Positions 37,633 through 60,515 of a stretch of DNA of 64,000 bases are shown here, one piece after another. Position 1 is the first letter of the stretch. Each line of letters starts with the position of its first letter. Below the pieces are notes generated by a model that ran no database searches, was not told where the DNA came from, and saw nothing but the letters and a program-made list of their open reading frames with translations. The translations under genes were made by a program, and so were the position numbers. The DNA is from an uncultured Pelagibacteraceae bacterium (GTDB lineage Bacteria; Pseudomonadota; Alphaproteobacteria; Pelagibacterales; Pelagibacteraceae). The stretch lies in NCBI GenBank assembly GCA_902567945.1, contig CACFOC010000001.1, positions 20,343-84,342 on the forward strand. The letters run 5' to 3'.

Positions 37633-37742
37633 TAATAAAACACTATATCAGCACCAAAAATTGACGCAATCTACATTGACTCATCATGACCCAAACCATA
37701 CAATTTTGCTTATATAATATTAATATTATTATGGGGGAAAAA

Positions 37743-38681: not shown

Positions 38682-38706
38682 ATAAGGATTAAAGCTACAA
38701 ATTATA

Positions 38707-38744
38707 ATCTCTCCCGATATTATGTCGGGAGAGATTTTTTTTTT
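38707..38744 (+). terminator. Rho-independent terminator after tmoX
   Basis: An 11-bp stem ATCTCTCCCGA / TCGGGAGAGAT with a 7-nt loop is followed by T9. Confidence 0.8.
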
Positions 38745-38769
38745 ATATAATTTTGTGTAAAATGGACCA

Positions 38770-39144: not shown

Positions 39145-39152
39145 TTAAAATA

Positions 39153-39704
39153 ATGCTACAAGATAAATATTTAAATAAATTAAGGGAGTTGCCCGAACCA
39201 GTTAGACAATTTGGTGGTCTTGTTACTATAACATTTATCGTAATTTTATCTTTTGCCATTTTAAATATTTTTTGGGGTGGAGGTGATGAATTAGTTAGAA
39301 AAATGAAATTAGAAGAGGAAAGAATTGCACAAGAAAAAAAACTAAGCAAACTGATTTCAAGCCTTCCACCAGGTATTTTAGTACCCTATGAAGGAACTAA
39401 AGGCCATAAATTGTCCGAAGAACAACACGAAGTAGTTTGCAAGGCAACAAAAATTGTATCCCAGCGTTCTGTTATGGGGGCTAATTTAATAAATTTTAAA
39501 GCTAAACACATATATACTATTAACGGTAATGATATTAAAGAAACATTTGTTAAGTGGGACAAAGAGAAAAATAAATGCTTCGCTGGTTATGTTGTAACTG
39601 GAAGCAATGTTGGAGTAAATGAAACTATCACTGTTAGTGGAGAGGTTTTAAGTTTTTTTAATACCGGAATTGATACAAGAGTTTATTTTATTAAAAATTT
39701 TTAA
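39153..39704 (+). CDS. Hypothetical N-terminally membrane-anchored protein
   Basis: 183 aa with one TM segment (LVTITFIVILSFAILNIFW). I recognise no family. Confidence 0.5.
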   Translation: MLQDKYLNKLRELPEPVRQFGGLVTITFIVILSFAILNIFWGGGDELVRKMKLEEERIAQEKKLSKLISSLPPGILVPYEGTKGHKLSEEQHEVVCKATKIVSQRSVMGANLINFKAKHIYTINGNDIKETFVKWDKEKNKCFAGYVVTGSNVGVNETITVSGEVLSFFNTGIDTRVYFIKNF

Positions 39705-39769
39705 GGGGGTAAAACAACAATTATATAGATTTTATTTTTACTAAATTTCATATAATTTGTTAAAAGATT

Positions 39770-40801: not shown

Positions 40802-40803
40802 AT

Positions 40804-42957
40804 ATGGAATTATTAAAAAAATATCCAAAATTATTTCAATGGTTCTTTTTGTTAATTGTATTTTTTGCTTTATGCTTTGCAATTGATGTTCCTGAAACCT
40901 ACAAATTTATAAGAGGTCAAGCGGAATTCATTAAAGACCCCAACCAAAGTACCTACACACTATTTGGCAAAGAAGTAAGATATTATGCATTTGATGTCTT
41001 GTGGAGACTACCTCCTTTACTTGGATGGTTACCTATTTGGGTAAATGACTCTTTGTTTTTCTTATTGAATGAATGGATGCCAATGGAGTTTTGGAATGAA
41101 GATCTTCAAGAATACAAAACTCGACCTTTAGTACTACAAATAACAAGAAATATAACTGCACTTATGACATTTCTTATTGAATTGATTAGAGAAATTTTAC
41201 TAGGCGGTGTTAAGACAGTTGTTGCATTTACCAGTTGGGATTGGATAGATAAAAATCCATGGGCAGAACTGCCAGGTTTACCTTGGACAATCGTTGCAGC
41301 GGGTGCGGTAATATTAGGTTACAAACTGAGTGGCAAGGGTCTAGCTATATTTGCTGGTTTAGTCATGGTTTATATTTCCGTATTTGGTCAATGGAAACCT
41401 TCAATGCAAACACTTTCTTTTATATTAGTAGCGGCACCACTTTCTTTCATATTTGGTTTGACTTTAGGTGTTATGGCTTACAAGAGTAAACGTGTTGAGA
41501 AAGCTTTATATCCATTACTCCTAGTGATGCAGACCATGCCACAATATGCCGTTCTAGTTCCTGCAATGGTTCTGTTTGGTATTGGAGATCATGCAGCAGT
41601 TATTATAACAATGGTTGTTGCTATTCCGCCAATGATCTTATTAACTTTGTTAGGGCTTAGAGCAGTATCTCCTGAAGTTATTGAAGCTGGCAAAATGAGT
41701 GGATGTAATAATTGGCAATTAATGACCAAAGTATTAATTCCAACTGCACGAAGAGACATTTTAATTGGAGTGAACCAGGTCATAATGGTGTGTTTCTCCA
41801 TGGCGGTTATTGCAGCTTTTATAGGCGCTAAAGGATTAGGATGGAATTTATTGTTAGCCTTAAATCAATTGAATATTGGATTAGCATTGGAAGCTGGACT
41901 GTGTATTAGCATGATTGCAATCTTGTTAGATAAAATGTCTTTGGCTTGGGCAAATAAACAAGAAGATTATTTTGGTAACCTGACGTTTTTTCAGCGTTAT
42001 AAAAATACATTATTTTTTGCTGGCGCCGTATTGATCGGAATTATACTTTCGTACGTTGGCTCTTTTTATCTTAAAGATGGTTATAATTATTTATACGAGG
42101 TACCTCACAATAAAGGAATATCAACAGCAGCTTTTTGGAACAAAGGTGTTGATTGGATTTGGGATACTTTCTTTCAAACTTTAAAAATATTTAATACTTG
42201 GTTAATAACAGAAGTTCTTCAACCAATGAGAGCCTTGTATCTAAGAATGCCAGCAGTTGCTACTGTGGTATTAGTTGTTGGGGCCGGTTATATAATTGGT
42301 GGAATTCGTTCAGCTTTGGTAACTGCTGGATTAGTATTATTTATAGCGTTAAGTCCATGGTGGGATAGAGCTTTAGTCACAACATACATGGCAACTTTTG
42401 GAGTTATTGCATCTTGTACAATTGGATTAACTGTTGGAACTTTATGTCAACAAAATAAATATACCACAAAATTTATGTTAGCAGTTTGTGATATTTTTCA
42501 AACATTTCCTTCTTTTGTATATTTAATTCCAGTAATGATGCTTTTTGGAGTTACAGATACATCAGTATTAATTGCGGTAATTGTTTACGCAACTATACCT
42601 GCTACAAGGTACACTATTGAGGGATTAAGAAGTGTTCCACCTGCTTTGCATGACGCTGCCTCAATGTCTGGTGTAACGAAATTTCAAAGATTAATAAATA
42701 TAGAATTTCCAATAGCATTTCCTCACATGATGCTTGGTGTAAACCAAACAATAGTATTTGCTCTGTTTATGGTAATAATCGGCGCATTTATTGGAACAGA
42801 AGATTTAGGACAATATATTCTAAAAGCTTTATCTGATAAAGCAGGAGGAGGAAAAGGATTAATACTTGGTATTTGTGTCGCTTTCATAGCTCTGATATTT
42901 GATAATTTAATTAGAACTTGGGTACAAAAAAGAAAAAAACATCTAGGTATAGATTAA
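40804..42957 (+). CDS. tmoV: Fused double permease of the OpuAB/ProW type
   Basis: 717 aa. Two EAA-loop modules are present (EAGKMSGCNNWQLMTKVLIPTA and DAASMSGVTKFQRLINIEFPIA). Confidence 0.75.
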   Translation: MELLKKYPKLFQWFFLLIVFFALCFAIDVPETYKFIRGQAEFIKDPNQSTYTLFGKEVRYYAFDVLWRLPPLLGWLPIWVNDSLFFLLNEWMPMEFWNEDLQEYKTRPLVLQITRNITALMTFLIELIREILLGGVKTVVAFTSWDWIDKNPWAELPGLPWTIVAAGAVILGYKLSGKGLAIFAGLVMVYISVFGQWKPSMQTLSFILVAAPLSFIFGLTLGVMAYKSKRVEKALYPLLLVMQTMPQYAVLVPAMVLFGIGDHAAVIITMVVAIPPMILLTLLGLRAVSPEVIEAGKMSGCNNWQLMTKVLIPTARRDILIGVNQVIMVCFSMAVIAAFIGAKGLGWNLLLALNQLNIGLALEAGLCISMIAILLDKMSLAWANKQEDYFGNLTFFQRYKNTLFFAGAVLIGIILSYVGSFYLKDGYNYLYEVPHNKGISTAAFWNKGVDWIWDTFFQTLKIFNTWLITEVLQPMRALYLRMPAVATVVLVVGAGYIIGGIRSALVTAGLVLFIALSPWWDRALVTTYMATFGVIASCTIGLTVGTLCQQNKYTTKFMLAVCDIFQTFPSFVYLIPVMMLFGVTDTSVLIAVIVYATIPATRYTIEGLRSVPPALHDAASMSGVTKFQRLINIEFPIAFPHMMLGVNQTIVFALFMVIIGAFIGTEDLGQYILKALSDKAGGGKGLILGICVAFIALIFDNLIRTWVQKRKKHLGID

Positions 42958-42973
42958 AATTTAGAAAAATAAT

Positions 42974-44314
42974 CTATTTTTTTGATTGATTTAAAAAAGT
43001 TTTTGAAGAATCGTCCATTGCAGAAGCCCATGGGGTGTGATGAATTGGTGCAATTGATCCAGTCACTGGGGATGAAAAAGATTTATTCCTATAAGTCATA
43101 ATATCTTCTACTTTATGATGTTCCCATTCTTTAAAATGTTTTCTTATTAATTCAAAATCAATTTTTGGATAATCAGATAATCCATGAAGTTCTTTAGTAT
43201 ATTCAGTTTGAAAATCTATCATATGATCAGGATTTTCTAATTTTTCTTCCATAGCAACCCATTTATCTATATCTTTTTTGATTTCTGAACTACTTGGAAT
43301 TTTAATTTTACCCATTATTACATCTCTTGCATACCAAGCCTGACAATCAAACATGTTAAAGGTATGAAATTGGTCCTGCATACCCAAGTAAAACAATTTA
43401 TGATTATTTTCCCAAACTACACCTTTATACAATTTTGGTGGATATAATCTGTTTCTAGTTTTTAGTTTAAGGTCTTCAGTTAAAAAAGGGAAGTGATGAA
43501 GATAACCTGAGCATAAAATTATTGCATCAGCTTCTTGTTTGTGACCATCTTTAAAGATTGCTTTATTTCCTTCTAATCTGTCTAAATAATGGACTTCCTT
43601 CATTCCTTTGGGCCATTTAAAACCCATTGGGTTATTTCTATAACCTATAGTCACACTTTTTGCTCCATATTTATGACATTGAAGAGCAACATCTTCAGCT
43701 GAATAACTACTTCCTAAAACAATAACATTTTTACCTCTGAATTCTTCTGCGTCTCTAAAATCGTGCGAATGTAGTATTCTTCCTGGAAAAGATTTCATTC
43801 CCGGATATTCTGGAATAAATGGAACAGAGAAGTGTCCTGTAGATACTACTATGTAATCAAATGTATCTTTTGAAAATTTATCATTTTTTTTATCATGTGA
43901 AGTTACTTCAAAATTTTTTCCATTATAAATTACAGCCATAACGGTTGTGTTAAATCTTACTTTGTTTTTAAGATTCCCTTTTTTTACTCTACCAATTATA
44001 TAATCATACAAAACTTCTCTTGGTGGAAATGATGGAATTGGTTTTCCGAAATGTTTATCAAACGAATAATCAGCAAATTCTAAACATTCTTTAGGACCAT
44101 TTGACCAAAGATATCTATACATGCTGTTAGGAACAGGGTCTCCATATTGATCAGATCCAGTTCTCCAATTGTAGTTCCACAATCCTCCCCAATTTTCTTG
44201 TTTTTCAAAACAAACTATTTGAGGTATTTTTTCTCCTTTTTTTTCAGCTTGCTCAAAAGATCTTAACATCGAAAGACCACAAGGACCCGTTCCAATAATT
44301 GCTACTTTTGTCAT
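42974..44314 (-). CDS. tmm: Trimethylamine monooxygenase (bacterial flavin-containing monooxygenase)
   Basis: 446 aa. The FAD motif is IIGTGPCGLS, the FMO motif FxGxxxHxxxF appears as FPGRILHSHDF, and the NADPH motif is VLGSSYSAEDV. Confidence 0.85.
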   Translation of the reverse strand: MTKVAIIGTGPCGLSMLRSFEQAEKKGEKIPQIVCFEKQENWGGLWNYNWRTGSDQYGDPVPNSMYRYLWSNGPKECLEFADYSFDKHFGKPIPSFPPREVLYDYIIGRVKKGNLKNKVRFNTTVMAVIYNGKNFEVTSHDKKNDKFSKDTFDYIVVSTGHFSVPFIPEYPGMKSFPGRILHSHDFRDAEEFRGKNVIVLGSSYSAEDVALQCHKYGAKSVTIGYRNNPMGFKWPKGMKEVHYLDRLEGNKAIFKDGHKQEADAIILCSGYLHHFPFLTEDLKLKTRNRLYPPKLYKGVVWENNHKLFYLGMQDQFHTFNMFDCQAWYARDVIMGKIKIPSSSEIKKDIDKWVAMEEKLENPDHMIDFQTEYTKELHGLSDYPKIDFELIRKHFKEWEHHKVEDIMTYRNKSFSSPVTGSIAPIHHTPWASAMDDSSKTFLNQSKK

Positions 44315-48850: not shown

Positions 48851-50107
48851 ATGCAAAAATATTCAATATTTAGCTTAATAAAGAATGCCTTTACCAATCA
48901 TCAGAATTGGGAGGTAGCTTGGAAAGATCCTGTTCCTAAAAAAGAGTATGACATTGTAATTGTTGGAGGGGGAGGGCATGGACTCGCCACCGCCTATTAT
49001 TTAGCTAAAGAACACAAAATTACTAATGTAGCGATTTTGGAAAAAGGATGGATTGGCGGAGGTAATGTTGGAAGAAATACTACAATACTAAGATCAAATT
49101 ATATGTGGGATGCCAATGGTTTATTTTATGAATATGGAATGAAACTTTGGGAAAATTTATCACAAGAATTAAATTATAACGTTATGTATTCACCAAGAGG
49201 CATTATTAATCTTGCTCACTCTGACGCACAATTAAACACATATTCTCGAAGAGGAAATTCTATGCGATTGAATGGTATTGATGCAAAAATGCTAGGTAGA
49301 GAAGAGTTAAAAAAAATAATTCCTTTTGCAGATTTCACTTCATCAGCAAGATTCCCAATTTTTGGAGGTTTAATGCAGCCTCGAGGAGGAACAGCAAGAC
49401 ATGATGCAGTAGCTTGGGGGTACGCAAGGCAAGCAGACTCAATGGGGGTCGATATAATTCAACATTGTGAAGTTACAGGATTTGATATTGTGAATGGAAA
49501 ATTACAAGGGGTACAAACTTCTAGAGGAAATATTAAAACAAAAAAAATAGGTCTGTGTGTAGCTGGTAGTACTTCCTTACTTGCTGAAAAATTAAATATG
49601 AAACTACCTATAGAGTCCCATGTATTACAAGCTTGTGTATCAGAACCAGTAAAACCTTTTCTTGATCACGTCGTAACTTTTGGAGCGGGTCATTTTTATT
49701 GCAGTCAATCAGACAAAGGTGAAATGGTTATGGGTGGAGACTTAGACGGGTATAATAGTTATGCGCAACGAGGAAATTTACCAACCCTTCAACATGTTTT
49801 ATCTGAAGGTGTAGCTATGTTTCCTAACCTAAGTAGATTAAAAATGTTAAGGACCTGGGGAGGAATCATGGATATGTCTATGGACGGATCGCCTATAATA
49901 GATAAGACTCACATTGAAGGTGTTTATCTAAACTGCGGTTGGTGTTATGGGGGATTTAAAGCTACTCCTGTGTCCGGATGGACTTTTGCATATACGATTG
50001 CTCAAGATCGTGCGCATGAATTAAATTCAAAATTTAAATTAAATAGATTTAACACAGGCCATTTAATCGATGAAAAGGGAGTAGGTACAAAAACTTGGAT
50101 AGGATAA
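48851..50107 (+). CDS. soxB: Heterotetrameric sarcosine oxidase / N-methylglutamate dehydrogenase beta subunit
   Basis: 418 aa. Motifs are IVGGGGHGLATAYYLA and CGWCYGGFKATP. Confidence 0.8.
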   Translation: MQKYSIFSLIKNAFTNHQNWEVAWKDPVPKKEYDIVIVGGGGHGLATAYYLAKEHKITNVAILEKGWIGGGNVGRNTTILRSNYMWDANGLFYEYGMKLWENLSQELNYNVMYSPRGIINLAHSDAQLNTYSRRGNSMRLNGIDAKMLGREELKKIIPFADFTSSARFPIFGGLMQPRGGTARHDAVAWGYARQADSMGVDIIQHCEVTGFDIVNGKLQGVQTSRGNIKTKKIGLCVAGSTSLLAEKLNMKLPIESHVLQACVSEPVKPFLDHVVTFGAGHFYCSQSDKGEMVMGGDLDGYNSYAQRGNLPTLQHVLSEGVAMFPNLSRLKMLRTWGGIMDMSMDGSPIIDKTHIEGVYLNCGWCYGGFKATPVSGWTFAYTIAQDRAHELNSKFKLNRFNTGHLIDEKGVGTKTWIG

Positions 50108-50110
50108 TAA

Positions 50111-50377
50111 ATGTTAGAAATTAAATGCCCATATTGTGGGAAAAGATCTCAAAATGAATTTTCTTACGGAGGAGATGCAAATATAAAAAGACCAGAATTA
50201 GGAAAAGAAATTTCTGATTCAGAATGGGATAATTTTGTTTATTTTAGAAAAAATCCACGGGGAAAACATTCAGAGTTATGGCACCATGTGGCAGGATGCA
50301 GACAATGGTTTAAAGTTTCGAGAGATACGTCGACACATGAAATTTTTAAAACATCGAAATTGAACGAAGAATTATAA
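50111..50377 (+). CDS. soxD: Sarcosine oxidase / NMG dehydrogenase delta subunit
   Basis: 88 aa. The Zn motif is CPYCG...WHHVAGC. Confidence 0.8.
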   Translation: MLEIKCPYCGKRSQNEFSYGGDANIKRPELGKEISDSEWDNFVYFRKNPRGKHSELWHHVAGCRQWFKVSRDTSTHEIFKTSKLNEEL

Positions 50378-50384
50378 ATTTAAT

Positions 50385-53381
50385 ATGACACAAAAATATA
50401 GGCTAGACAAAGGTGGGTTTATAAAAAGAGATAAGAAAATTTCTTTTAAATTTAATGGAAAAAAATATTTTGGATATGAAGGAGATACATTAGCATCAGC
50501 ATTATTGGCTAATGGAGTTCACTTGGTTGGTCGAAGCTTTAAATATCACAGACCCAGAGGATTTATTGCAGCTGGGGTAGATGAACCTAATGCTAAAGTT
50601 CAATTATATCATGGAGCCAAAACCGAACCTAATGCTGTTGCCACAGAAGTGGAGCTTGTTGAGGGATTAATTGCAAAAAGTCAAAATTGTTTTCCATCAG
50701 TTTCTTTTGATTTTGGAGAAATTAATAATTTTCTCAGTAAATTTTTTCCTGCTGGTTTTTATTACAAAACTTTTATGTGGCCTAAAAATTTTTGGTATAA
50801 AATATATGAACCGATTATTAGAAAAGCAGCTGGCTTGGGAGTTGCTCCACTAAAACCAGATCCTGATCGATATGAACATAAGTTTGAATATTGTGATGTT
50901 TTGGTAGTTGGTTCGGGCCCATCAGGGTTAGCGAGCGCTCTAGCTGCAGCAAAAAATGGGGCTAGAGTTATTATAGCAGAAGATAAATCTAGATTTGGAG
51001 GAAGCTTACTAACAGATGAAGTTACTGTAGGAAATAAAAAAGGTAAAGATTGGGCTGACGAGACAATAGAACAATTAAAAATAATGCCTAATGTGGTCGT
51101 TAAAAACAGATCTCAAGTTTTTGGATATTATGATCACAATATGATGGTTATGTTTGAAAGAACAAAAGATCATTTGGAATTTCCTAACAAATATACTCCT
51201 AGACAAAGACTTTGGTATATAAGAGCAAAAGAAGTCGTAGCATCCACTGGTTCAATGGAAAGACCATTAGTTTTTGGAAATAATGACAGACCAGGTATAA
51301 TGTTATCTTCAGCAGCCAAAGAATATTTAAGAGTTTATGGAGTTTTAGTTGGTAAAAAACCAATTATTTTTACTAATAACGATAGTGCATATGAAACGGC
51401 CATAGATTTTAAAAAAAATGGAATAAATCCAATAGTAATTGATATTAGAGAAAATTCCGAAAGTTCAGTAATTAAGGAAGCAAAAAATTTAAAAATTGAT
51501 ATTCGATTTTCTCATGCAATCGCTAATACAAGAGGACATTTAAGAGTAAATTCCGCAACAATCGGCAAATTAAATGAACAAAAAACTAACTACCAAAGTC
51601 TCGAAGATATTTCCTGCGATTGTATATGTGTTTCAGGAAACTGGACACCTACAGTTCATCTAGCTTCTCAATCAGGAAATAAACTAAAATTTGATGAAAA
51701 TATTAATGCATTTATACCCAATCAGTCACGCCAAAATGAAACTACAGTAGGATCAGCGAAGGGCTCGTTTACACTCAAAAAATCTTTAGAAGAAGGATTT
51801 AATAAAGGATTCGAACTATCAAATAAAATAACCAAAAAAAATATAAAAAGTGCAATCCCAACTTCTAATGAAAGAAGCAACGGTAAACAAAATAAATTTT
51901 GGTGTATGCCACTTCCAAAAAATAAAAATTACAAAAGATGTGTTGATTTTCAAAACGATGTTTATGTTTCTGATATAGAACTAGCTATAAGAGAAGGTTT
52001 TAGATCTATTGAACATGTAAAAAGATATACAACGCTTGGTATGGCTACAGATCAAGGAAAGACAAGTAATTTAAATGGTTTGCAATTAGTTTCAAGTATT
52101 GAGAAGAAGATAGTTCCGGAAGTAGGTCATACTACTTTTAGACCTCCCTATACTCCTGTCACTATAGGGGCAATAGTAGGAAGAGAAGTAGGAAAGTACT
52201 ATCGACCGACAAGAAAATCACCGATACATGCATGGCATGAAAAAAATAATGCAGTTTTTGTTGATGCGGGTTTATGGCTAAGACCTCGTTACTACAATCA
52301 AGGAAATGAAACTTTGCACGAAGCTTCAAAGAGAGAAGCGTTTAATGTTAGAAACAATGTTGGGATATGCGATGTAACTTCACTTGGTAAAATAGATATT
52401 AAAGGATCTGATTCAGCTGAATTTTTAAATAGAGTTTACACTAATGCTTGGATGAAATTACCAGTCGGAAAAGCAAGATATGGGGTGATGTTAAGAGAGG
52501 ATGGAATAGTTTTTGATGATGGAACTACAACCAGAATTTCAGAAAATCATTTTCATATGACAACAACAACTGCTCAAGCAGTCAATGTTTTGGCTCATTT
52601 AGAATATTATCTACAGGTAGTCTGGCCAGAACTAAATGTTAATGTTTTGTCTACAACAGAACAATGGGCTGGTGCAGCAGTAGCAGGACCTAATTCTAGA
52701 AGTTTATTGGAAAAACTTTTTCCAGATACTGATGTTTCTAATGAAGGACTGCCATTTATGGGATTTAAAGAAGCAGACCTGTTTGGTGTTCCTGCAAGAA
52801 TTTTTAGAATTTCGTTTTCTGGCGAACTAGCATATGAAATAAATGTAGAGTCTGGCTATGGAATTTTTATGTGGGAAAAAATAATGGAAATAGGAAAAGA
52901 AATGGGCATTGAACCGTATGGAACAGAAGCTCTTTCTACTTTAAGAATAGAAATGGGTCATGTTGCTGGTTCAGAAATTGATGGCAGAACTATATCATCA
53001 GATCTCTCTCTTGATGGAATGTTAAGTAAGAAAAAAGATTTTATAGGAAAAAGATCACTAAATAGAAAAGCTTTTATAGAAACTGGAAGAGAAAAAATTG
53101 TGGGCGTAGTCCCTTTAGATAAAAAAACAATGATACCAGAAGGTTCACATATAGTTGTTGATAATAAGGCTTCTTTACCTAATCCAAAACTAGGACATAT
53201 TTCTGCTTCATGTTGGAGTGTTGAATATAACAATCCTTTTTCTTTAGCAATTCTTAAGGATGGAAAGCAAAGAATAGGTGAAAAGCTTTATGCTCTCTCA
53301 CCTCTAAAAAGTAAAAGCATTCCAGTAGAAATAGTATCATCACATTATGTTGATCCCACAGGAGAAAGGGTAAGATCGTGA
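50385..53381 (+). CDS. soxA: Sarcosine oxidase / NMG dehydrogenase alpha subunit
   Basis: 998 aa. It has the NAD/FAD fold VLVVGSGPSGLASA and a C-terminal GcvT-like domain FSGELAYEINV. Confidence 0.85.
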   Translation: MTQKYRLDKGGFIKRDKKISFKFNGKKYFGYEGDTLASALLANGVHLVGRSFKYHRPRGFIAAGVDEPNAKVQLYHGAKTEPNAVATEVELVEGLIAKSQNCFPSVSFDFGEINNFLSKFFPAGFYYKTFMWPKNFWYKIYEPIIRKAAGLGVAPLKPDPDRYEHKFEYCDVLVVGSGPSGLASALAAAKNGARVIIAEDKSRFGGSLLTDEVTVGNKKGKDWADETIEQLKIMPNVVVKNRSQVFGYYDHNMMVMFERTKDHLEFPNKYTPRQRLWYIRAKEVVASTGSMERPLVFGNNDRPGIMLSSAAKEYLRVYGVLVGKKPIIFTNNDSAYETAIDFKKNGINPIVIDIRENSESSVIKEAKNLKIDIRFSHAIANTRGHLRVNSATIGKLNEQKTNYQSLEDISCDCICVSGNWTPTVHLASQSGNKLKFDENINAFIPNQSRQNETTVGSAKGSFTLKKSLEEGFNKGFELSNKITKKNIKSAIPTSNERSNGKQNKFWCMPLPKNKNYKRCVDFQNDVYVSDIELAIREGFRSIEHVKRYTTLGMATDQGKTSNLNGLQLVSSIEKKIVPEVGHTTFRPPYTPVTIGAIVGREVGKYYRPTRKSPIHAWHEKNNAVFVDAGLWLRPRYYNQGNETLHEASKREAFNVRNNVGICDVTSLGKIDIKGSDSAEFLNRVYTNAWMKLPVGKARYGVMLREDGIVFDDGTTTRISENHFHMTTTTAQAVNVLAHLEYYLQVVWPELNVNVLSTTEQWAGAAVAGPNSRSLLEKLFPDTDVSNEGLPFMGFKEADLFGVPARIFRISFSGELAYEINVESGYGIFMWEKIMEIGKEMGIEPYGTEALSTLRIEMGHVAGSEIDGRTISSDLSLDGMLSKKKDFIGKRSLNRKAFIETGREKIVGVVPLDKKTMIPEGSHIVVDNKASLPNPKLGHISASCWSVEYNNPFSLAILKDGKQRIGEKLYALSPLKSKSIPVEIVSSHYVDPTGERVRS

Positions 53382-53965
53382 CAGCTATAACACCTTTAGA
53401 GTTTATTCATAAAAAAGGAATATTTGGAGATCATCAAAAAAAAAACGAAAGCGACTTACTAAGAATTTCAGAAGTAAAAAATTCAACAATAATTCAGCTT
53501 GTACAACACAAAACGTCCAAAATTAATATTAATGATATAAAAATTGAAGGTCTAGAAATTTCAACGAAAAGCTCTACTGTAAAATCAAATAAAGAAACAA
53601 GAATTTTATGGAATGCACCGCGAACCTGGTTAATTATATCTAATAAAGAAAATATTATTAAAATTATTGAAAAAAATTGTAAAGAAATTGATTTTGCCAT
53701 TACTGACATATCTCATTCGAGAGCTGTAATACAAATTAAAGGCGATCAAGCAAGAGAAGTACTAAAGAAGGGCAGTCCAATCAATTTTAATGAGTTTGAA
53801 GTTAATAAATGTGTTGGCACAATATTTCATGGAATAAATTTAGTAATTGATTTAATTTCTGATGATCCAGATACTTTTAATCTCTTAGTTCTAAGAAGTT
53901 TTGGAGAATCCTTTTATCATCATATTACTGACGCAGCTTTAGAGTTTGGTTATGTTGGTGTTTAA
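53378..53965 (+). CDS. soxG: Sarcosine oxidase / NMG dehydrogenase gamma subunit
   Basis: 195 aa. The call rests on position, size and the 4-nt overlap with soxA. Confidence 0.65.
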   Translation: MTAITPLEFIHKKGIFGDHQKKNESDLLRISEVKNSTIIQLVQHKTSKININDIKIEGLEISTKSSTVKSNKETRILWNAPRTWLIISNKENIIKIIEKNCKEIDFAITDISHSRAVIQIKGDQAREVLKKGSPINFNEFEVNKCVGTIFHGINLVIDLISDDPDTFNLLVLRSFGESFYHHITDAALEFGYVGV

Positions 53966-53966: not shown

Positions 53967-55145
53967 TTAAATTTCAGCCATTTCAAGATGAAGTTTTGAA
54001 CCTGTATACCTGTATTTTTTTGCTACTTCTTCATTAAGTTCAACACCTAATCCTGGTTTTGTTGGTGGTATGACATATCCCTTTTCCCATTCGATAGGGT
54101 CTTTAAGTATTTCGGAATAAAAATTTTTCCAATCTTTAATGCTTTCTAATATAAGAAAATTAGGACTACATGTTGAAATTTGTATATTTGCTGCACCAAC
54201 AATAGGCCCACAATAGAGATGAGGAGCTATTTGTGCATAGTATGTTTCCGCCAAACCTGCAATTTTTTTAGCCTCCAATATACCGCCCGCTCTACCTAAG
54301 TTCATTTGTAAAATACTTGCACCTCTAGATTCTAAAATTTTAGAAAATTCATATTTTGTTGAGAGTCTTTCGCCAGTTGCTATTGGTATAGTGGTAGCGA
54401 GAGCAACTCTACCCATTTCATCAAAATTTTCTGGTGGTATTGGTTCTTCAAACCACATAGGATCAAACTGCTCTAACCTTTTTGCTAACCTTATAGCAGA
54501 GTCCGTTGTCATTTGGCCATGTGTGCCAATTAAAAGATCACACTTATTTTTTACCGAGCGATAAATAGTTTTTACAAAATTTTCAACTTTAACAAGTTCG
54601 TCTAATGAAAGTTGACGGGGATCTAAAGGAGTGTAACTACCAACAGGATCAAATTTTATTGCTGTAAATCCTTTTTCAATAAATTCGTTTGCTCTTTCTG
54701 CGGCCAAAGTAGCATCCGTATAGACATTGGTTTTATCAGATTTTTTTGGGTATAAATATGTATATGAACGTAACTTATTATATACCTGACCACCCAATAA
54801 TTCATATATAGGTTTATTTAATTCTTTCCCGATAATATCCCAGCATGCCATTTCGATTCCGCTAATTATTCCCATAAGGGAAATATCTGGACGTTGTGTA
54901 TAACCACTAGAATAAATGGTTCTCCATAATTTTTCTATTTTAAAGGGATCTTTTTGTTTTACATACCTTTCAAATACGTCTTCAATCATTTTTGTAACTA
55001 CATTTGGGTGGAAAGGAACAGAATAAATTTCGCCATATCCGACTATATCTTTGTCAGTGATAAGTTTTATAAAAATCCAATATCTCCCTCCAAAATGTGG
55101 CGGGGGATTACCAACAATAAATGTTTCAATTTTTTTCAGTTTCAT
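53967..55145 (-). CDS. Enolase-superfamily enzyme (mandelate racemase/muconate lactonizing family, galactonate-dehydratase-like)
   Basis: 392 aa. The N-terminal capping domain reads GYGEIY...IEMACWDIIGKELNKPIYELLGG, followed by a barrel domain. Confidence 0.8.
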   Translation of the reverse strand: MKLKKIETFIVGNPPPHFGGRYWIFIKLITDKDIVGYGEIYSVPFHPNVVTKMIEDVFERYVKQKDPFKIEKLWRTIYSSGYTQRPDISLMGIISGIEMACWDIIGKELNKPIYELLGGQVYNKLRSYTYLYPKKSDKTNVYTDATLAAERANEFIEKGFTAIKFDPVGSYTPLDPRQLSLDELVKVENFVKTIYRSVKNKCDLLIGTHGQMTTDSAIRLAKRLEQFDPMWFEEPIPPENFDEMGRVALATTIPIATGERLSTKYEFSKILESRGASILQMNLGRAGGILEAKKIAGLAETYYAQIAPHLYCGPIVGAANIQISTCSPNFLILESIKDWKNFYSEILKDPIEWEKGYVIPPTKPGLGVELNEEVAKKYRYTGSKLHLEMAEI

Positions 55146-55272
55146 TTTTAAATAGTATTCTTTGAATTTTCACATGAAATTTAATTTTTTTCAATCATAA
55201 GTTGTCTTTAAAGGTTACATTATTTTCCTATTTATGTTTGAATACAAACATTAAAAAATAAACGGAGGTAAA

Positions 55273-56295
55273 ATGAATACTCTTAAAAAACTAATAGTTT
55301 CTTCTCTGGTTGTGTTGGGATTTTTTGTATTTAACGTAAATGCAAATGCAGCTTGTGGGAAACTTGTTATTGCTGAACAAAACTGGGCATCAGCTGAATT
55401 GATGGCTAATGTTGATAAAATCATTTTAGAAAAAGGTTATGGTTGTGAAGTTGAATTAGTGCCTGGTGCTACTATGCCAACTTTTACATCAATGAATGAT
55501 AAAGGTTCACCAGACATGAACCCAGAACAATGGGCTAATGCTGTTTACACACCTTTAAAAAAAGCAGTATCAGAAAAAAGATTGATTATAGCTAACAAAG
55601 CACCAATTACTGGTCTGGGAGAAGGCTGGTGGTTAACTCCTGGATCAATAAAAAAACATCCAGAGTTAAAAGGAATGACTGCTCTTCAAATCTTAGAAAG
55701 ACCAGATTTATTTCCATATAAAGAAGATCCTTCAAAAGGAGCGTTTGTAGGATGTCCTGCAGGTTGGGGATGTCAGTTAGCAAATGCTAATCTTTTTAAA
55801 GCTTTTGAAATGGAAAAAAAGGGCTGGGTGTTAGTTGACCCAGGTTCTGCAGCGGGTTTAGATGGTTCAATATCTAAAGCAGCTGATTCAGGAAATACTT
55901 GGTTTGGTTACTACTGGAACCCAACTTCAATTGTTGGAAAATACAATTTACAACCAGTTGATTTTGGAGTGCCATTTGCAGGTAGAGATAATTGGGATAA
56001 TTGTATAACGCTTCCTGAGCAAGATTGTGCAAATCCTAAACCAACAGCTTGGACTAAATCTGAAGTTAATTCTATCGTTACAGCTAATTTTGCAAAAACT
56101 GGAGGAAAAGACGCTTTAAAATATGTTGAGAAGCGTACTTACCCAGGCGAAGTAATGAATGGAATGCTTGTGTACATGGCTGATAATCAAGCTAAAGGTT
56201 CAGACGCAGCAATTGAGTTTTTGAAAAAGCATGAGAAGATCTGGGGTAAATGGGTATCTTCTGCAGCTAAGAAAAAAATCAAAGCTGGTCTTTAA
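55273..56295 (+). CDS. OpuAC/ProX-type periplasmic quaternary-amine binding protein
   Basis: 340 aa with a signal peptide and an AEQNWASAE motif like tmoX NWSSQ. Confidence 0.75.
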   Translation: MNTLKKLIVSSLVVLGFFVFNVNANAACGKLVIAEQNWASAELMANVDKIILEKGYGCEVELVPGATMPTFTSMNDKGSPDMNPEQWANAVYTPLKKAVSEKRLIIANKAPITGLGEGWWLTPGSIKKHPELKGMTALQILERPDLFPYKEDPSKGAFVGCPAGWGCQLANANLFKAFEMEKKGWVLVDPGSAAGLDGSISKAADSGNTWFGYYWNPTSIVGKYNLQPVDFGVPFAGRDNWDNCITLPEQDCANPKPTAWTKSEVNSIVTANFAKTGGKDALKYVEKRTYPGEVMNGMLVYMADNQAKGSDAAIEFLKKHEKIWGKWVSSAAKKKIKAGL

Positions 56296-56308
56296 AATAT
56301 AATTTTTT

Positions 56309-56345
56309 AACGAGCCTATTATAAAATAGGCTCGTTAATTTTTTT
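56309..56345 (+). terminator. Intercistronic hairpin plus T-run between the SBP and permease genes (partial terminator/attenuator)
   Basis: The sequence reads AACGAGCCTAT-tataaa-ATAGGCTCGTT followed by AATTTTTTT. Confidence 0.7.
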
Positions 56346-56353
56346 GAGGCAAA

Positions 56354-57238
56354 ATGGATTTCTTAACAAAATTTCCGGTAATGGATCGTACGGCTCTCAT
56401 GGAAATGAGGAAAGGGATTGATTTTGCTTTTAGAGATTTTTCTAGAACTTATGGAGATGCTATAGAAGCCTTTTTTGATCCATTATTATATTTTTTGGTT
56501 TGGTTGGAAAAATTATTAATTAATTCTCCTTGGCCAATAGTAATAGGTGTTATTTGCGGGTTAGCTTGGCTAGGCTCAAGAAATTGGAAACTCGTGCTTG
56601 GAGCCGCAATAGCTTTCTTCCTTATAGGCTACTTTGGTATGTGGAAAGATACTATGGCAACAGTAGCAATTATAACTGTATGTGTGATCATATGCATGAC
56701 TGCAGGAATTCCTGTAGGAGTAATGATGTCTCGCTCAGATAGGGTAGAAAGAACTATATTACCTGTACTAGATATGATGCAAACAATTCCAAGTTTCGTA
56801 TATCTAATTCCAATACTGATGTTACTTGGTATCGGAAAAGTTCCAGGATTAATAGCTATATGTATATATGCAGTTCCACCAATAATAAGATTAACAAATC
56901 TTGGTATTCGTGAGGTTGATAAAGAAACTTTAGAAGCAAGCACAGCTTATGGAGCTACAACATTTCAAAAATTAAAAACAGTACAAATTCCACTAGCTCT
57001 TCCAACTGTTTTTGCAGGAGTAAACCAAACAATCATGATGGCTTTAGCAATGGTTGTTATTGCTTCAATGATTGGTGTGAAAGGGTTAGGTGTGCCAATT
57101 TTGCGGGCTGTTTTAAATCAATATCTTGCTTTAGGGCTTTTTAATGGTTTAGCAATTGTAGCTTTAGCAATTATTTTTGATAGAATTGCCCAAGAGTATG
57201 GACGAAGAATACAAAAGCATCGCGGATATAAAAAATAA
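56354..57238 (+). CDS. OpuAB/ProW-type ABC permease
   Basis: 294 aa. The EAA loop is EASTAYGATTFQKLKTVQIPLA. Confidence 0.8.
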   Translation: MDFLTKFPVMDRTALMEMRKGIDFAFRDFSRTYGDAIEAFFDPLLYFLVWLEKLLINSPWPIVIGVICGLAWLGSRNWKLVLGAAIAFFLIGYFGMWKDTMATVAIITVCVIICMTAGIPVGVMMSRSDRVERTILPVLDMMQTIPSFVYLIPILMLLGIGKVPGLIAICIYAVPPIIRLTNLGIREVDKETLEASTAYGATTFQKLKTVQIPLALPTVFAGVNQTIMMALAMVVIASMIGVKGLGVPILRAVLNQYLALGLFNGLAIVALAIIFDRIAQEYGRRIQKHRGYKK

Positions 57239-57256
57239 AAAAAGAGAAACTAGAAG

Positions 57257-58231
57257 ATGAACAATTATCGAATAGATAATCTACAGTATTGTAATTGGTC
57301 AAAAGAAGTATTTAAGATTAATAATGAAGCAAAATTAGATGCTGTTCACGTAACTGTAGCTTATCATGAAGATTTTAACGAGGTTAAAAAAAATATAGAA
57401 ACTTGGAATAAACATTTTAAAGAAAACAAAGATTTAATTTTTCACGGAAAAACATTTAAAGATATAGAAAAAGCTCACCAAGAAAAAAAAACTGCAATAT
57501 TTTTTGGTTTTCAAAACTGTTCTCCAATTGAAGATGATATTGCTTTAGTTGAAAAGGTTTATGATTTAGGAGCAAGATTTATGCAACTTACTTATAATAA
57601 TCAATCTTTATTAGCGACAGGTTGTTACGAAAAGAATGATAGCGGCGTTACACGAATGGGCAAGGAAGTGATCAAGGAAATGAATAAACTTGGGTTGGTA
57701 GTTGATATGTCTCATTCTGCTGAAAAATCTACCTTTGATGCTATTGAATTATCATCTAAACCTATAGCCATCACACATGCTAATCCTTCATTTTGGTTTG
57801 CAGCTAAAAGAAATAAATCTAATGAACTATTAAAAGCTTTGGCAGACTCTAAAGGAATGCTCGGTCTTTCTTTATATCCTCATCATTTAAAAGATACATC
57901 AAACTGTACACTTGAAAGTTTTTGTGAAATGGCAGCTAAAACAGTAGAACTTATGGGAATTAAACAAGTTGGAATTGGATCAGATCTTTGTATTGGACAC
58001 CCCAATACTATTGTTGAATGGATGAGAAATGGTACTTGGACAAAAACAAAAGATTATGGAGAAGGCAGCTCTAAGAATCCAAATTTTCCAAAACAACCAA
58101 AATGGTTTAAAGATGCTCGAGGATTTAAAAATCTAGAACAAGGTTTGAAAAAAGTTGGATTTCAAGAAACCGAGGTAAATGACATACTAGGAAATAACTG
58201 GTATAATTTTTACCGAGGAATAAACAATTGA
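57257..58231 (+). CDS. Peptidase-M19 (renal dipeptidase)-fold protein with a degenerate metal site
   Basis: 324 aa. It aligns by eye to DPEP1 blocks: LGLVVDMSHS, PIAITHANP, GIGSDL. Confidence 0.7.
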   Translation: MNNYRIDNLQYCNWSKEVFKINNEAKLDAVHVTVAYHEDFNEVKKNIETWNKHFKENKDLIFHGKTFKDIEKAHQEKKTAIFFGFQNCSPIEDDIALVEKVYDLGARFMQLTYNNQSLLATGCYEKNDSGVTRMGKEVIKEMNKLGLVVDMSHSAEKSTFDAIELSSKPIAITHANPSFWFAAKRNKSNELLKALADSKGMLGLSLYPHHLKDTSNCTLESFCEMAAKTVELMGIKQVGIGSDLCIGHPNTIVEWMRNGTWTKTKDYGEGSSKNPNFPKQPKWFKDARGFKNLEQGLKKVGFQETEVNDILGNNWYNFYRGINN

Positions 58232-59898
58232 GCAAACCTAATATACAATTAAGAGAACCATCAATGGTGATGAAGCTATCTAGATTAGGCTCATTCCACC
58301 AGTCGAAATTATCATTCCTTAGAAGTTTTATTAGAGAGTTTAAAAGTTGGAACTACAAAAGAGATTTATTTGATCTTAATAAAGATGGTTATGGTACGGC
58401 AGTTTATTCTTTTGAAAAGAAGGGAAGAAATTATTCGTTAGTATGTTTTGCACAACATATAAAGCCTGAGGAAAGATCAGACAGAGTTATAGCTACGAAA
58501 TGGGATGCAGCCTTTGTTTTATACGATGGAACACCTTCAAAAAAAGATATAAATCGTTTAAGAAAAAATGTACCTAAACAGGAAGTAGGAAGAGTAACCT
58601 ATAAAGAACTTACTTTATCAAGAGCAAATAAATCAGTAAGAGCATTTAATCACGTAGTGAATTCATTAAGCGAAGGAACGCAACCAGATAAAGAATTATT
58701 AAAAAAAGTTGGTTATTTATATCGAACCACAGCAGTTTATGGATCGGGAAAATTTGGTCTTGCTGATCGTTTTAGAATTAAAGATAGAAAAGAAATTTAT
58801 GGTCCATTCAGATTAGAAATGATGTTAGTTTACCTTGTTCGACAATTTACTTTTGATCAAGTAAACCATATTGCAAAATGTAAAAATTCAAAAAAAGCTA
58901 CTAGATTAGAAGAAAGTATTGCAAGAAATTTGGGAATTGGCAATTCAACTGGCCTTGGCATGGCTCCTTTTATAGTAAATCACCCAACTCTTCTGCACAA
59001 TTGGATTTATTGTAGAGAAAAAGCTTTAAAACAAATTAGATCAATTGAAAAAGTTAACAAAGATGATTTTAATATTTTTAAGAATTGTCTTAATAAGTCA
59101 AAAATGAACATCGAAACGTGGTTAACTGATAGTCAATATCAAACTAATAAAATTGATTCTTTAAAATTAGACTTAACAAAATTTTTTAAATATTTAGAAA
59201 ACTTAAATTACGAGGAAAACGACTATTTGTGGAATCTTATTTATCTTTGGACTGAAAAAAATCTTAAAGAAGAATGTGTAGAGTATATTGTGTCCATGAT
59301 GATGGAGCCTTACGATTCAATTATTGATCCTTTAATAAATAACATGAGCTCTGAGGAGGAAAAATATTTTAATATTCCAGCAGATAGAAAAGTTTATGAT
59401 CTCAAAAAAATTATTGAAAAAAATTATAAATCAATTATTGAAATTGATTTTAAAGATAAAAAAAGTACAAGTAATTTTTGGTTTATATCAAAAAACAAAG
59501 AGGAACCTAGAGTAGCCAATAGGCATGAAGAACGTGGAGCCGAGCTAGAACAGCCGTTAGCTATAGCGAGAGATGTAAAAAAACTTTATGAAAAATTAAT
59601 CAAAAACAATCAAAAAGAAACTGTTGCGAATTTTTTATTAAATAATGATGATTTAAGACACGTAGTTAGAAGAGCTTTTATTGTTGAAAAATTTCCATAC
59701 TCTGAAATTCAAGACAATACTATTGGAGCTTCGCTAGTGCCAATAGATATGCTTCGTTTAAAACTTTCTTTTTTTGGAGCTGTAAAGTTTGATCCAAGAT
59801 CAGATAAATGGCTAAGAATAAATATGTACCAGGGAGCACCTCTTCCTCACGAGATGAAATCTTCAAATGACAGTTGGGTTTATAACTCACTAAATTAA
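58228..59898 (+). CDS. Hypothetical 556-aa protein, no recognisable family
   Basis: A long ORF with a 4-nt overlap on the M19-like gene. Its composition matches the neighbours. Confidence 0.6.
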   Translation: MSKPNIQLREPSMVMKLSRLGSFHQSKLSFLRSFIREFKSWNYKRDLFDLNKDGYGTAVYSFEKKGRNYSLVCFAQHIKPEERSDRVIATKWDAAFVLYDGTPSKKDINRLRKNVPKQEVGRVTYKELTLSRANKSVRAFNHVVNSLSEGTQPDKELLKKVGYLYRTTAVYGSGKFGLADRFRIKDRKEIYGPFRLEMMLVYLVRQFTFDQVNHIAKCKNSKKATRLEESIARNLGIGNSTGLGMAPFIVNHPTLLHNWIYCREKALKQIRSIEKVNKDDFNIFKNCLNKSKMNIETWLTDSQYQTNKIDSLKLDLTKFFKYLENLNYEENDYLWNLIYLWTEKNLKEECVEYIVSMMMEPYDSIIDPLINNMSSEEEKYFNIPADRKVYDLKKIIEKNYKSIIEIDFKDKKSTSNFWFISKNKEEPRVANRHEERGAELEQPLAIARDVKKLYEKLIKNNQKETVANFLLNNDDLRHVVRRAFIVEKFPYSEIQDNTIGASLVPIDMLRLKLSFFGAVKFDPRSDKWLRINMYQGAPLPHEMKSSNDSWVYNSLN

Positions 59899-59900
59899 CT

Positions 59901-60515
59901 ATGCAGTCTTTTAGCGAAATTGACACTACATCAAAACGTGCATCTAAAGCAGCAGGATTTGCTTGGGGTGTAGCCGAAGAAGTAGGCAAAAACATGAGAA
60001 ACCTAGAAATGTTTGGTTTGCCGGGGATAAAAAATTTAAATTTATATCTTAAAAAAATAAAAAAAATCCCATCAGAAAAACCTAAGAAGATTGGGAAAAA
60101 AAATAAACCACAATCTAAAGAATTTTGCCCAATTTATTGCGGCATAGTGTTTTTAGATAATTGTAAAAATTTGGAAAGTTTAAAACTAATCAAATTTTTT
60201 AATGTTAGTTACCCTTTACTTTTGTTGCCTTTTTTAAGTAGAGCTTCAGATATTATAGGAAAGAAAATATCAGTAAAATATGAAAAAAATAATTTTTTAC
60301 TTAATTTCGATAAAACTATTTTTTCCAATAATATTAATAATAATAAAACTATTTCTAAAGCGAAAGAAATTTCTATAGAATTTTTAGAAAATAATAATTT
60401 GTTTTCCATCAAAGAATGGAAAGAACTTTACAAACTCTCAGAGGAAACTTTTGTCGAAGAAACTGATACTTTAAGAGCGAAAGGTGCTGGTGCTGGTTTA
60501 ACAGACAATGATTAA
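59901..60515 (+). CDS. DUF3726-like protein
   Basis: 204 aa. The N-terminal sequence KRASKAAGFAWGVAEEVGKNMRNLEMFGLPG resembles my memory of the DUF3726 N-terminus. It starts 2 nt after the upstream stop. Confidence 0.5.
   Translation: MQSFSEIDTTSKRASKAAGFAWGVAEEVGKNMRNLEMFGLPGIKNLNLYLKKIKKIPSEKPKKIGKKNKPQSKEFCPIYCGIVFLDNCKNLESLKLIKFFNVSYPLLLLPFLSRASDIIGKKISVKYEKNNFLLNFDKTIFSNNINNNKTISKAKEISIEFLENNNLFSIKEWKELYKLSEETFVEETDTLRAKGAGAGLTDND

Follow-up and report, generated by a model that had tools for sequence, protein, structure and literature searches.

A probable homarine catabolic operon joined to a DmpX-type ABC importer in a SAR11 genome segment

Closest described systems

Homarine (N-methylpicolinate) is an abundant algal metabolite; in diatoms and Synechococcus few small metabolites are more abundant. 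Among ocean heterotrophs, SAR11 is the most abundant. Here we describe a SAR11 locus at positions 53967-60515 of a 64,000-nucleotide (nt) stretch of contig CACFOC010000001.1 (in the following, the window). It comprises an enolase-superfamily gene and a plus-strand operon encoding a substrate-binding protein (SBP), an ATP-binding cassette (ABC) permease and three further proteins. The closest described system is the homarine catabolic operon homABCDER (Ferrer-Gonzalez et al., Nat Microbiol 2026 (March), PMC13236597). Its gene order is homE-homA-homB-homT(GBT)-homC-homD-homR in Cobetia, and in R. pomeroyi homA, homB, homC, homD (aldehyde dehydrogenase) and homR correspond to SPO3188, SPO3189, SPO3190, SPO3191 and SPO3192, respectively (PMC13236597). 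The genes homA (about 700 nt) and homB (about 1,700 nt) are adjacent in 97.7% of genomes; their products were modelled as a heterodimer, HomA is said to have FAD-binding motifs, HomC is a predicted peptidase and HomD an aldehyde dehydrogenase (PMC13236597). Genetic work was done in Cobetia and Ruegeria, and homB, homC, homD and homR mutants lose growth on homarine (PMC13236597). The operon was reported in SAR11, SAR116, Rhodobacterales and Vibrionales; none of the 120 Pelagibacter genomes has homE. ABC transporters and enolase-superfamily genes are not mentioned in that paper (PMC13236597).

According to the same study, HomA and HomB act together on homarine, opening the pyridinium ring with retention of the N-methyl group. 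The intermediates are C7H9NO5, C6H9NO4 and C6H9NO3, and the product is N-methylglutamate, which N-methylglutamate dehydrogenase, usually annotated as sarcosine oxidase, converts to glutamate; the homarine-induced operons annotated as sox are mgd operons (PMC13236597). An analogy to TgnAB, which acts in trigonelline degradation, was also proposed there (PMC13236597).

The second related system is DmpXWV, an ABC importer specific for dimethylsulfoniopropionate (DMSP) (Li et al., ISME J 2023, PMC10030565). Binding of DMSP was measured for DmpX of R. pomeroyi, Roseovarius nubinhibens and Pelagibacter sp. HTCC7211, the last with a dissociation constant (Kd) of 100 nM. The DMSP-bound structure of the R. 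nubinhibens protein (RnDmpX; 7yle) names eight pocket residues, and mutation of Tyr200 abolishes binding (PMC10030565). The DmpX-type transporter is used as a global marker of DMSP uptake.

Gene content of the locus

The window is a segment of a SAR11 genome with a G+C content of about 31%, and its proteins are near-identical to those of Pelagibacteraceae single-cell and metagenome genomes. It forms an island of genes for methylated compounds, with a Tmm-like flavin monooxygenase, formate-tetrahydrofolate ligase, sox-like genes, BHMT, DMGDH and a TmoX-like SBP accompanied by a fused permease and an ATPase. The locus itself consists of the following features, with the basis of each assignment given last.

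53967-55145, minus strand: MR/MLE enolase-superfamily enzyme (Pfam MR_MLE_N and MR_MLE_C)
55234-55251, no strand: inverted repeat ATGTTTG-aata-CAAACAT (sequence)
55273-56295, plus strand: OpuAC-type SBP of the DmpX family (Pfam OpuAC; PDB match 7yle)
56307-56348, plus strand: terminator-like hairpin and T-run (14-bp stem spanning 56307-56338)
56354-57238, plus strand: ABC permease of ProW/ChoW type, DmpW-like (Pfam BPD_transp_1)
57257-58231, plus strand: homC, M19-fold TIM-barrel amidohydrolase protein (Pfam Peptidase_M19, position)
58228-59898, plus strand: homB, 556-aa protein, 1,671 nt (size and position; no recognised domain)
59901-60515, plus strand: homA, DUF3726 protein, 615 nt (Pfam DUF3726 at residues 3-68, position)

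All six open reading frames (ORFs), their order and their junctions, evaluated from ORF coordinates and from Pfam and NCBIfam, were as described in an initial annotation made from the sequence alone. The permease and homC genes are separated by 18 nt, homC and homB overlap by 4 nt, and homB and homA are separated by 2 nt; these tight junctions point to co-transcription of permease-homC-homB-homA. No ABC ATPase is encoded at the locus, a gap that had already been noticed. Likewise, homD, homE and homR are missing at this locus, and there is no aldehyde dehydrogenase gene within 10 kb.

Identification as a homarine operon

Gene order, gene sizes, partner genes and taxa were assembled here independently and coincide with those of the published hom operon. 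We therefore read the plus-strand operon as a SAR11 operon for homarine catabolism that has its own high-affinity ABC importer attached, with a probability of about 0.82. Positions 57257-60515 are assigned to homC-homB-homA by synteny, gene size, partner genes and taxon range. By the same synteny the DUF3726 protein is mapped to HomA, the 556-aa protein to HomB and the M19-like protein to HomC, and, in relatives, an aldehyde dehydrogenase resembling alpha-ketoglutarate semialdehyde dehydrogenase to HomD, Ldh_2 to HomE, LysR to HomR and a BCCT transporter to HomT. The relative order homC-homB-homA and the gene sizes agree with the published operon, homA follows homB directly, homE is lacking here and in every Pelagibacter genome reported, and the neighbouring sox-like operon may be the mgd of the last step. 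The window differs from the published operon in lacking homR and a homD gene within 10 kb, in having a DmpX-type SBP and permease (with no adjacent ATPase) instead of the BCCT transporter HomT, and in carrying a divergently attached MR/MLE gene.

The window HomB shares 45-47% identity with the Ruegeria and Phaeobacter genes in homB position, and the window HomC about 60% with those in homC position. With the corresponding proteins of a paralogous type-2 triad (see below), identities are only 24-27% and 40-41%, which argues that the window proteins belong to the functional type.

The three downstream genes, to which the initial annotation could assign no function, thus match homC, homB and homA, and the system it took to be undescribed had already been reported in SAR11 (PMC13236597). 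Its expectation of onium-compound utilisation was right in kind, in that homarine is an onium-type zwitterion and the transporter belongs to the betaine family, but is outdated in its specifics. Catabolic genes for homarine and their presence in SAR11 are therefore known. Features that go beyond the published work are (i) a DmpX-type ABC importer in hom operons of three lineages, suggesting homarine uptake; (ii) a variable MR/MLE partner and the lack of homD, homE and homR at this locus; and (iii) a HomC without the M19 zinc ligands, a HomB without a neighbour in the PDB, and natural HomB-HomA fusions. The main residual value lies in the link between two recently described systems, homarine catabolism and the DmpX-type importer, while the missing homD/homE/homR, the non-canonical HomC and a HomB without known fold mark the remaining biochemical questions of the pathway.

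Features elsewhere in the window that bear on this reading are:

48851-53965, plus strand: sox-family operon (soxB/D/A/G-like) of heterotetrameric type (NCBIfam models; context only)
12204-13259, plus strand: orphan ProV-type ABC ATPase (Pfam ABC_tran)
39770-40801: second ProV-type ATPase of the window (similarity to hom-linked ATPases)
8679-10109, plus strand: aldehyde dehydrogenase, weak candidate for a homD stand-in (61% identity to the L081 enzyme)
23075-24517: aldehyde dehydrogenase (about 30% identity to canonical HomD)

Several points weigh against the homarine reading. The mapping to SPO3188-3191 and to Cobetia ACFLL8_11495-11515 runs via synteny, not sequence, and R. pomeroyi was not among the best 120 matches to the Phaeobacter HomB. 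The core gene homD, which by the search rule of the homarine paper should lie within 10 kb, is not found within that distance, and homR is missing. The nearest aldehyde dehydrogenases (8679-10109 and 23075-24517) share about 30% identity with canonical HomD; the first of them shows this level of identity to HomD of Phaeobacter, Aminobacter and L069, and 61% to the enzyme directly following homA in L081. Pfam and NCBIfam searches of HomA and HomB revealed no flavin-binding domain, with DUF3726 as the sole domain found. As to the transporter, the usual SAR11 dmpXW operon with MetF-like and DmdA-like genes points to DMSP, which is also the only measured ligand of a SAR11 DmpX (PMC10030565). Finally, homarine genetics come from Cobetia and Ruegeria and none from a SAR11 strain (PMC13236597), and the proposed deformylation by HomC and the fate of ring carbon C6 were derived from molecular formulas.

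Distribution and synteny

Labels such as L001 or L081 denote homologous loci in relatives that were compared with the window. The initial annotation had proposed to check whether the genes are syntenic in relatives; in 74 of 75 SAR11-type loci the M19-like/556-aa/DUF3726 triad was contiguous, and the remaining locus is cut by a contig edge. It was also contiguous in Limimaricola, Amylibacter, Geminicoccales, the unclassified metagenome-assembled genomes L079 and L080, the Phaeobacter and Aminobacter plasmids, and Ruegeria, so that Rhodobacterales and Hyphomicrobiales are both represented; Marivibrio, Vibrio and Leucothrix were seen to carry the M19-like and 556-aa genes. Outside SAR11 the order is LysR, aldehyde dehydrogenase - M19 - (BCCT) - 556-aa - DUF3726 - Ldh_2 (Phaeobacter, Aminobacter and Ruegeria spp.), with the BCCT gene not always present, and the core aldehyde dehydrogenase - M19 - (BCCT) - 556-aa recurs in Limimaricola, Marivibrio, Vibrio, Geminicoccales, L079 and L080. 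Apart from the divergent L069 group, no Ldh_2 gene was found beside SAR11-type triads. Searches with the window HomB and its family profile returned only near-identical SAR11 proteins. In the literature, no functional study was found on DUF3726, or on a dipeptidase in connection with betaine or SAR11.

An orthologue of canonical homD within 10 kb of homABC was seen only in L066 and L068-L071. An aldehyde dehydrogenase of another subfamily lies nearby in L081, L082, L018, L061, L064, L065 and L067, and most loci have none. This scarcity sits uneasily with the published co-location of homABCD within 10 kb in all 120 Pelagibacter genomes (PMC13236597).

L081, the closest relative with the MR/MLE gene, shows further peculiarities. 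A gene of the SBF family (bile acid:Na+ symporter-like; L081 8133-8981) lies between the ABC permease and homC, and the aldehyde dehydrogenase gene right after homA is followed by Rieske oxygenase, M24 peptidase, HalD-like and GFA genes.

The paralogous type-2 triad was found on S. meliloti pSymB (L084, 11223-20854) and Aminobacter aminovorans pAA02 (L087, 9199-19344). Its order is IclR - HomB-like - HomA-like - M19-like - PotD-type ABC transporter, with a class-III aminotransferase or RidA coming next, and it probably represents a related pathway for a different substrate.

The DmpX-type transporter

The sole PDB sequence match of the window SBP was 7yle (E = 2.5e-48). At 33% overall identity to RnDmpX, seven of the eight pocket residues are identical (W35, T64, W84, E113, W152, Y200 and W202), and A153 is replaced by Gly. 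The TmoX-like SBP of the window served as a control and differs from the RnDmpX pocket at 4 of 8 positions, showing that the pocket signature discriminates. The SBP is accordingly placed in the DmpX family and is a candidate binder of homarine and/or DMSP. The initial annotation had called it a betaine-type SBP; the OpuAC fold bears this out, but given the DmpX pocket signature its specificity is not as open as had been assumed. The validated HTCC7211 DmpX (WP_034399263.1) was not among the cluster members listed for the window SBP.

The permease scored below the cut-offs of the NCBIfam choline and ProW permease models that it matched; the protein is 89% identical to the L002 permease, which is paired with a DmpX-type SBP. 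Compared with DmpXWV, the window thus has an SBP of the same OpuAC fold with a ProW-type permease gene directly after it, and one SAR11 member of the DmpX family has been validated for DMSP binding. The window differs in its A153Gly replacement, in the lack of an adjacent ATPase gene (dmpV) and in that its genes are joined to homarine genes instead of standing alone, and its ligand is a prediction. The candidate ATPases, 12204-13259 and 39770-40801, are both unlinked; they are 51% and 50% identical, with near-equal scores, to the ATPase within the hom-linked ABC operon of L069. It is plausible that the ATPase at 12204-13259, as the initial annotation had suggested, energises the SBP/permease pair.

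DmpX-type SBP and permease genes were found within or abutting hom operons in three lineages. These comprise (i) the window, L081 and L082; (ii) L068-L071, a related alphaproteobacterial group, with an SBP-permease-ATPase set plus homD; and (iii) Aminobacter pMDW1, again with an SBP-permease-ATPase set. Only the window, L081 and L082 have the SBP-permease pair directly upstream of the triad. A further 21 SAR11 loci have a DmpX-type pair 6-7 kb from homB on the opposite strand.

In this common SAR11 layout the DmpX-type pair forms an operon with genes for a 242-aa MetF-like protein and a 452-aa DmdA-like aminomethyltransferase (e.g. L002 13017-17126, minus strand, and 20 similar SAR11 loci). 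The latter scored 229 bits against the DMSP demethylase model (cut-off 410), and both genes look like SAR11_1264 and SAR11_1265 discussed by Sun et al. 2011.

Because SBP and permease occupy the slot held in other hom operons by the BCCT transporter HomT, we infer that the DmpX-type importer would take up homarine, possibly also DMSP.

The HomC, HomB and HomA proteins

HomC matched Pfam Peptidase_M19 (PF01244) with 244.9 bits (cut-off 26), and its best PDB match was 2i5g, named 'amidohydrolase', which we take to be PA5396. In human DPEP1, a renal dipeptidase of family M19, the zinc ligands are His20, Asp22, Glu125, His198 and His219, and His152 is catalytic. The HomC equivalents of H20, D22, E125 and H152 are Leu9, Tyr11, Gln86 and Tyr113, so that three of the five zinc ligands and the catalytic His152 are replaced and the dinuclear-zinc signature of M19 is lacking. 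The equivalents of H198 (His153), H219 (His174), R230 and D288 are kept, and the pattern of substitutions is identical in all 17 HomC-type sequences examined and in 2i5g. HomC therefore shares the TIM-barrel fold of the renal/membrane dipeptidases (human DPEP1, 1itq; Sco3058, 3id7), their two beta-site histidines, the carboxylate-binding Arg230 and Asp288, but lacks the alpha-site HxD motif, has the bridging Glu125 changed to Gln and His152 to Tyr, and is cytoplasmic and encoded in an operon for pyridinium degradation. Judged by its sequence, HomC is not a canonical M19 metallodipeptidase, and its location and operon context likewise argue against calling it a dipeptidase in the strict meaning of the term. 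The label 'M19-like' of the initial annotation should accordingly not be read as dipeptidase.

HomB had no match in Pfam or NCBIfam, although its family counts 1,422 representatives at 50% clustering. An AlphaFold model built from a 45-sequence alignment reached a predicted local distance difference test (pLDDT) score of 94.4 and a predicted template-modelling (pTM) score of 0.94. A Foldseek search of this model against the PDB gave no match (best E = 0.95, template-modelling (TM) score <0.15), nor did the family profile match any PDB sequence. HomB thus has a confidently predicted fold without a neighbour in the PDB. Distant homologues of 839-943 aa (P0211, P0225, P0231, P0238, P0242-P0244, P0252, P0253, P0255-P0258, P0262, P0268 and P0269) are 27-31% identical to HomB and carry a C-terminal extension of 300-380 aa. 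In four that were scanned, no Pfam match above threshold was seen, with a sub-threshold DUF3726 match in P0231.

No PDB sequence matched the DUF3726 protein HomA. Its family has a conserved N-terminal block and a C-terminal tail R-x-x-GAGAG-x-x-DND; the tail is the sole glycine-rich motif seen, and its context is not Rossmann-like. In every triad seen, homA lies directly downstream of homB. Natural HomB-HomA fusions of 760-816 aa, shorter than the long HomB homologues, carry a full-length DUF3726 protein at their C-terminus. Constant adjacency, natural fusions and the published heterodimer model lead us to conclude that HomA and HomB work together. The three coupled genes had been treated as one unit before, and the synteny of the triad and the fusion of two of its members bear this out.

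Like TgnAB, HomA and HomB form a two-protein unit for the ring of an N-methylpyridinium carboxylate, followed by hydrolase and aldehyde dehydrogenase steps. The likeness is limited to this pathway logic, however, since neither protein showed a flavin reductase, a flavin monooxygenase or a Rieske domain in Pfam or NCBIfam, and HomB has no structural neighbour in the PDB. A TgnAB-like mechanism is neither supported nor excluded by these domain and fold searches.

Proposed pathway

In the proposed pathway, homarine would be brought in by the SBP and permease (55273-57238), with energy from an unlinked ProV-type ATPase, and its pyridinium ring would be opened by HomA-HomB. Ring carbon C6 would then be lost, probably as formate from an intermediate of the N-formyl-N-methyl-dehydroglutamate type; the mass balance fits such a loss (C7H9NO5 + H2O = HCOOH + C6H9NO4). 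HomC may be the amidohydrolase that removes the formate, since the residues it shares with dehydropeptidases include the carboxylate-binding Arg, both beta-site His and the general-base Asp, and N-formyl-N-methyl-dehydroamino acids are a substrate class that would suit a fold of this type. The resulting C5 aldehyde would be oxidised by an aldehyde dehydrogenase, HomD elsewhere and presumably an unlinked enzyme here, and in operons that have Ldh_2 (HomE), this enzyme could reduce the N-methyl imine. Demethylation of N-methylglutamate to glutamate would complete the pathway.

This last step is probably carried out by the sox-like operon directly ahead of the locus (48851-53965), which we regard as probably encoding an N-methylglutamate dehydrogenase (mgdABCD). 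Its soxB, soxD and soxA genes scored above the NCBIfam cut-offs and soxG below (90.7 bits, cut-off 143.95), with the limit that the NCBIfam 'family protein' models do not separate sox from mgd. The homarine mapping would explain why a sox-like operon is found beside hom genes in SAR11 loci, Phaeobacter and L079.

A more speculative proposal has two parts: SAR11 DmpX-family SBPs, read today as DMSP-specific in ocean metatranscriptomes, may be primarily or equally homarine-binding, as suggested by their independent recruitment into hom operons of three lineages in the slot of HomT, and HomA-HomB, given the fold of HomB without a PDB neighbour and the lack of a recognisable flavin domain in either protein, may open the pyridinium ring by chemistry unlike the TgnAB-type flavin system. 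Under the first part, some of the very abundant marine 'dmpX' signal would report uptake of homarine, not DMSP. We hold this proposal tentatively and consider it rather unlikely.

The enolase-superfamily gene

The best NCBIfam match of the MR/MLE protein was galactonate dehydratase, with 264.5 bits (cut-off 311). The top matches were galactonate and gluconate dehydratases; cis-3-hydroxy-L-proline dehydratase scored only 53 bits, and the best PDB sequence matches, 4e5t and 4e4u, are without assigned function. Close similarity to characterised epimerases of betaines or proline derivatives was thus not seen in NCBIfam or the PDB.

The gene adjoins hom genes only in the window, in L081 and in Amylibacter L076. 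In the window and L081 it diverges from the SBP gene across a shared 127-bp region; in Amylibacter a counterpart with 51% identity closes the hom operon. Neither L082, with an otherwise matching operon, nor the other SAR11 loci carry the gene, and it appears to be a variable, optional accessory gene of the hom operon.

Orthologues with 58-60% identity occur on plasmids of Leisingera (L088, 6329-9209) and Caballeronia (L089, 5188-10918). Both adjoin genes for a GMC oxidoreductase and LysR regulators, to which the Caballeronia locus adds an aldehyde dehydrogenase and an MFS transporter. These neighbours hint at a hydroxy-acid or polyol substrate for the enolase subgroup that includes 4e5t and 4e4u.

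Alternative explanations

The alternative that deserves most weight concerns the transporter half only: SBP and permease may be a pure DMSP importer (DmpXW) that a local rearrangement placed before homCBA, with homarine entering via another transporter, e.g. a broad osmolyte system. The pocket conservation, which includes the Tyr200 essential for DMSP, the 100 nM Kd of the HTCC7211 protein (PMC10030565) and the transcription of the pair with MetF-like and DmdA-like genes in 21 SAR11 loci are all in line with it. SAR11 also has a separate broad-specificity osmolyte SBP, SAR11_1336, and deletion of homT merely slows growth of Cobetia, which indicates redundant uptake (PMC13236597). On the other hand, the transporter was recruited independently into hom operons of L068-L071 and of the soil bacterium Aminobacter, without DMSP genes in the operon, and it fills the place that HomT has elsewhere; the permease-homC gap is just 18 nt, and a Kd of 100 nM is weak compared with the pM to low-nM values of other SAR11 SBPs for their cognate ligands. 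We consider a DMSP-only importer possible, although it is the less probable interpretation of this half.

Two other explanations address the enzymes, and both appear very improbable. The M19-like and DUF3726 proteins could be accessory factors of glycine betaine/dimethylglycine/sarcosine demethylation, with the 556-aa protein as the SAR11-type partner. Such a role would fit the predicted dipeptidase and hypothetical protein encoded ahead of dgcAB in the dimethylglycine operon of P. aeruginosa and Vibrio natriegens, the proximity of the M19-like protein to the 'amidohydrolase' 2i5g, and the SAR11 island with BHMT, DMGDH and sox-like genes. However, homB, homC, homD and homR mutants specifically lose growth on homarine (PMC13236597), the type-1 operon is self-contained with its own LysR regulator, transporter and aldehyde dehydrogenase, and the sox-like neighbour is accounted for by the N-methylglutamate step. 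The initial annotation, in turn, had envisaged a betaine/sulfonium pathway led by an epimerase acting on the compound that the SBP imports, with HpbD (hydroxyproline betaine 2-epimerase) as precedent. The likeness to HpbD consists in an enolase-superfamily gene beside a betaine-type SBP gene, and the divergent arrangement in the window and L081 as well as the terminal position in the Amylibacter hom operon are compatible with it. The precedent nevertheless fails to hold: the window enzyme is nearest to galactonate dehydratase models (below cut-off) and to 4e5t/4e4u, not to amino-acid or betaine epimerases; its linkage to SBP or hom genes is sporadic, its orthologues pair with GMC oxidoreductases, and the published role of the downstream genes needs no epimerase.

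Further candidates were rejected on the evidence of the partner genes, i.e. the constant aldehyde dehydrogenase, Ldh_2, LysR and transporter genes, which are better explained by the homarine pathway. These candidates comprise (i) a new DMSP or beta-alanine-betaine lyase by analogy to the Halomonas dddD cluster; (ii) retro-aldol cleavage of carnitine to betaine aldehyde; (iii) a creatinine or N-methylhydantoin hydrolase; (iv) a lactam hydrolase; and (v) an accessory of dimethylglycine and sarcosine oxidation for flavinylation or formaldehyde handling.

Putative regulatory elements

The hairpin between the SBP and permease genes consists of a 14-bp stem (56307-56338) followed by a T-run. A hairpin with U-tract occupies the same junction in L081, L082, L002, L006 and L069, with differing stem sequences in L006 and L069. 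Since its position is kept in these five loci, the hairpin, first described as attenuator-like, is a real and conserved terminator-like attenuator within the operon. It would allow an excess of SBP over the downstream gene products.

The inverted repeat ATGTTTG-aata-CAAACAT was also found as described, at 55234-55251, but was not conserved: upstream of the SBP gene it is missing in the closest relatives by SBP, L081 (96% identical) and L082 (91%), as well as in every other SAR11 locus. This absence argues against a role as operator, and the repeat is probably a chance or lineage-specific occurrence. A conserved, -10-box-like TATGTT element overlaps its left arm only.

The best sigma-70-like match of the region (58179-58207; ATGACA-17-TATAAT with upstream TG, 11/12) falls in the 3' end of homC, 20 nt ahead of the homB start. 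It could be an internal homBA promoter or a chance match in AT-rich coding DNA. An Rfam scan of the entire window gave no RNA family.

Other features of the window

A TauD-family dioxygenase gene resembling gamma-butyrobetaine hydroxylase (10919-12052, minus strand) is divergent from the ATPase gene at 12204-13259, and in L066 and L069-L071, too, genes of the TauD family are found a few kb away from the hom genes. Positions 35287-44314 resemble a module for trimethylamine N-oxide (TMAO) and trimethylamine (TMA). Besides the ProV-type ATPase (39770-40801), this stretch encodes a TmoX-like SBP (37686-38681), a fused double permease (40804-42957) and a flavin monooxygenase (42974-44314, minus strand); an SBP of the SAR11_1302 type was reported to bind TMAO. 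The stretch begins with a 781-aa ORF (35287-37632, minus strand) whose product is 26-27% identical to GcvT-type domains (the GcvT-like protein of L002 and the C-terminus of DMGDH).

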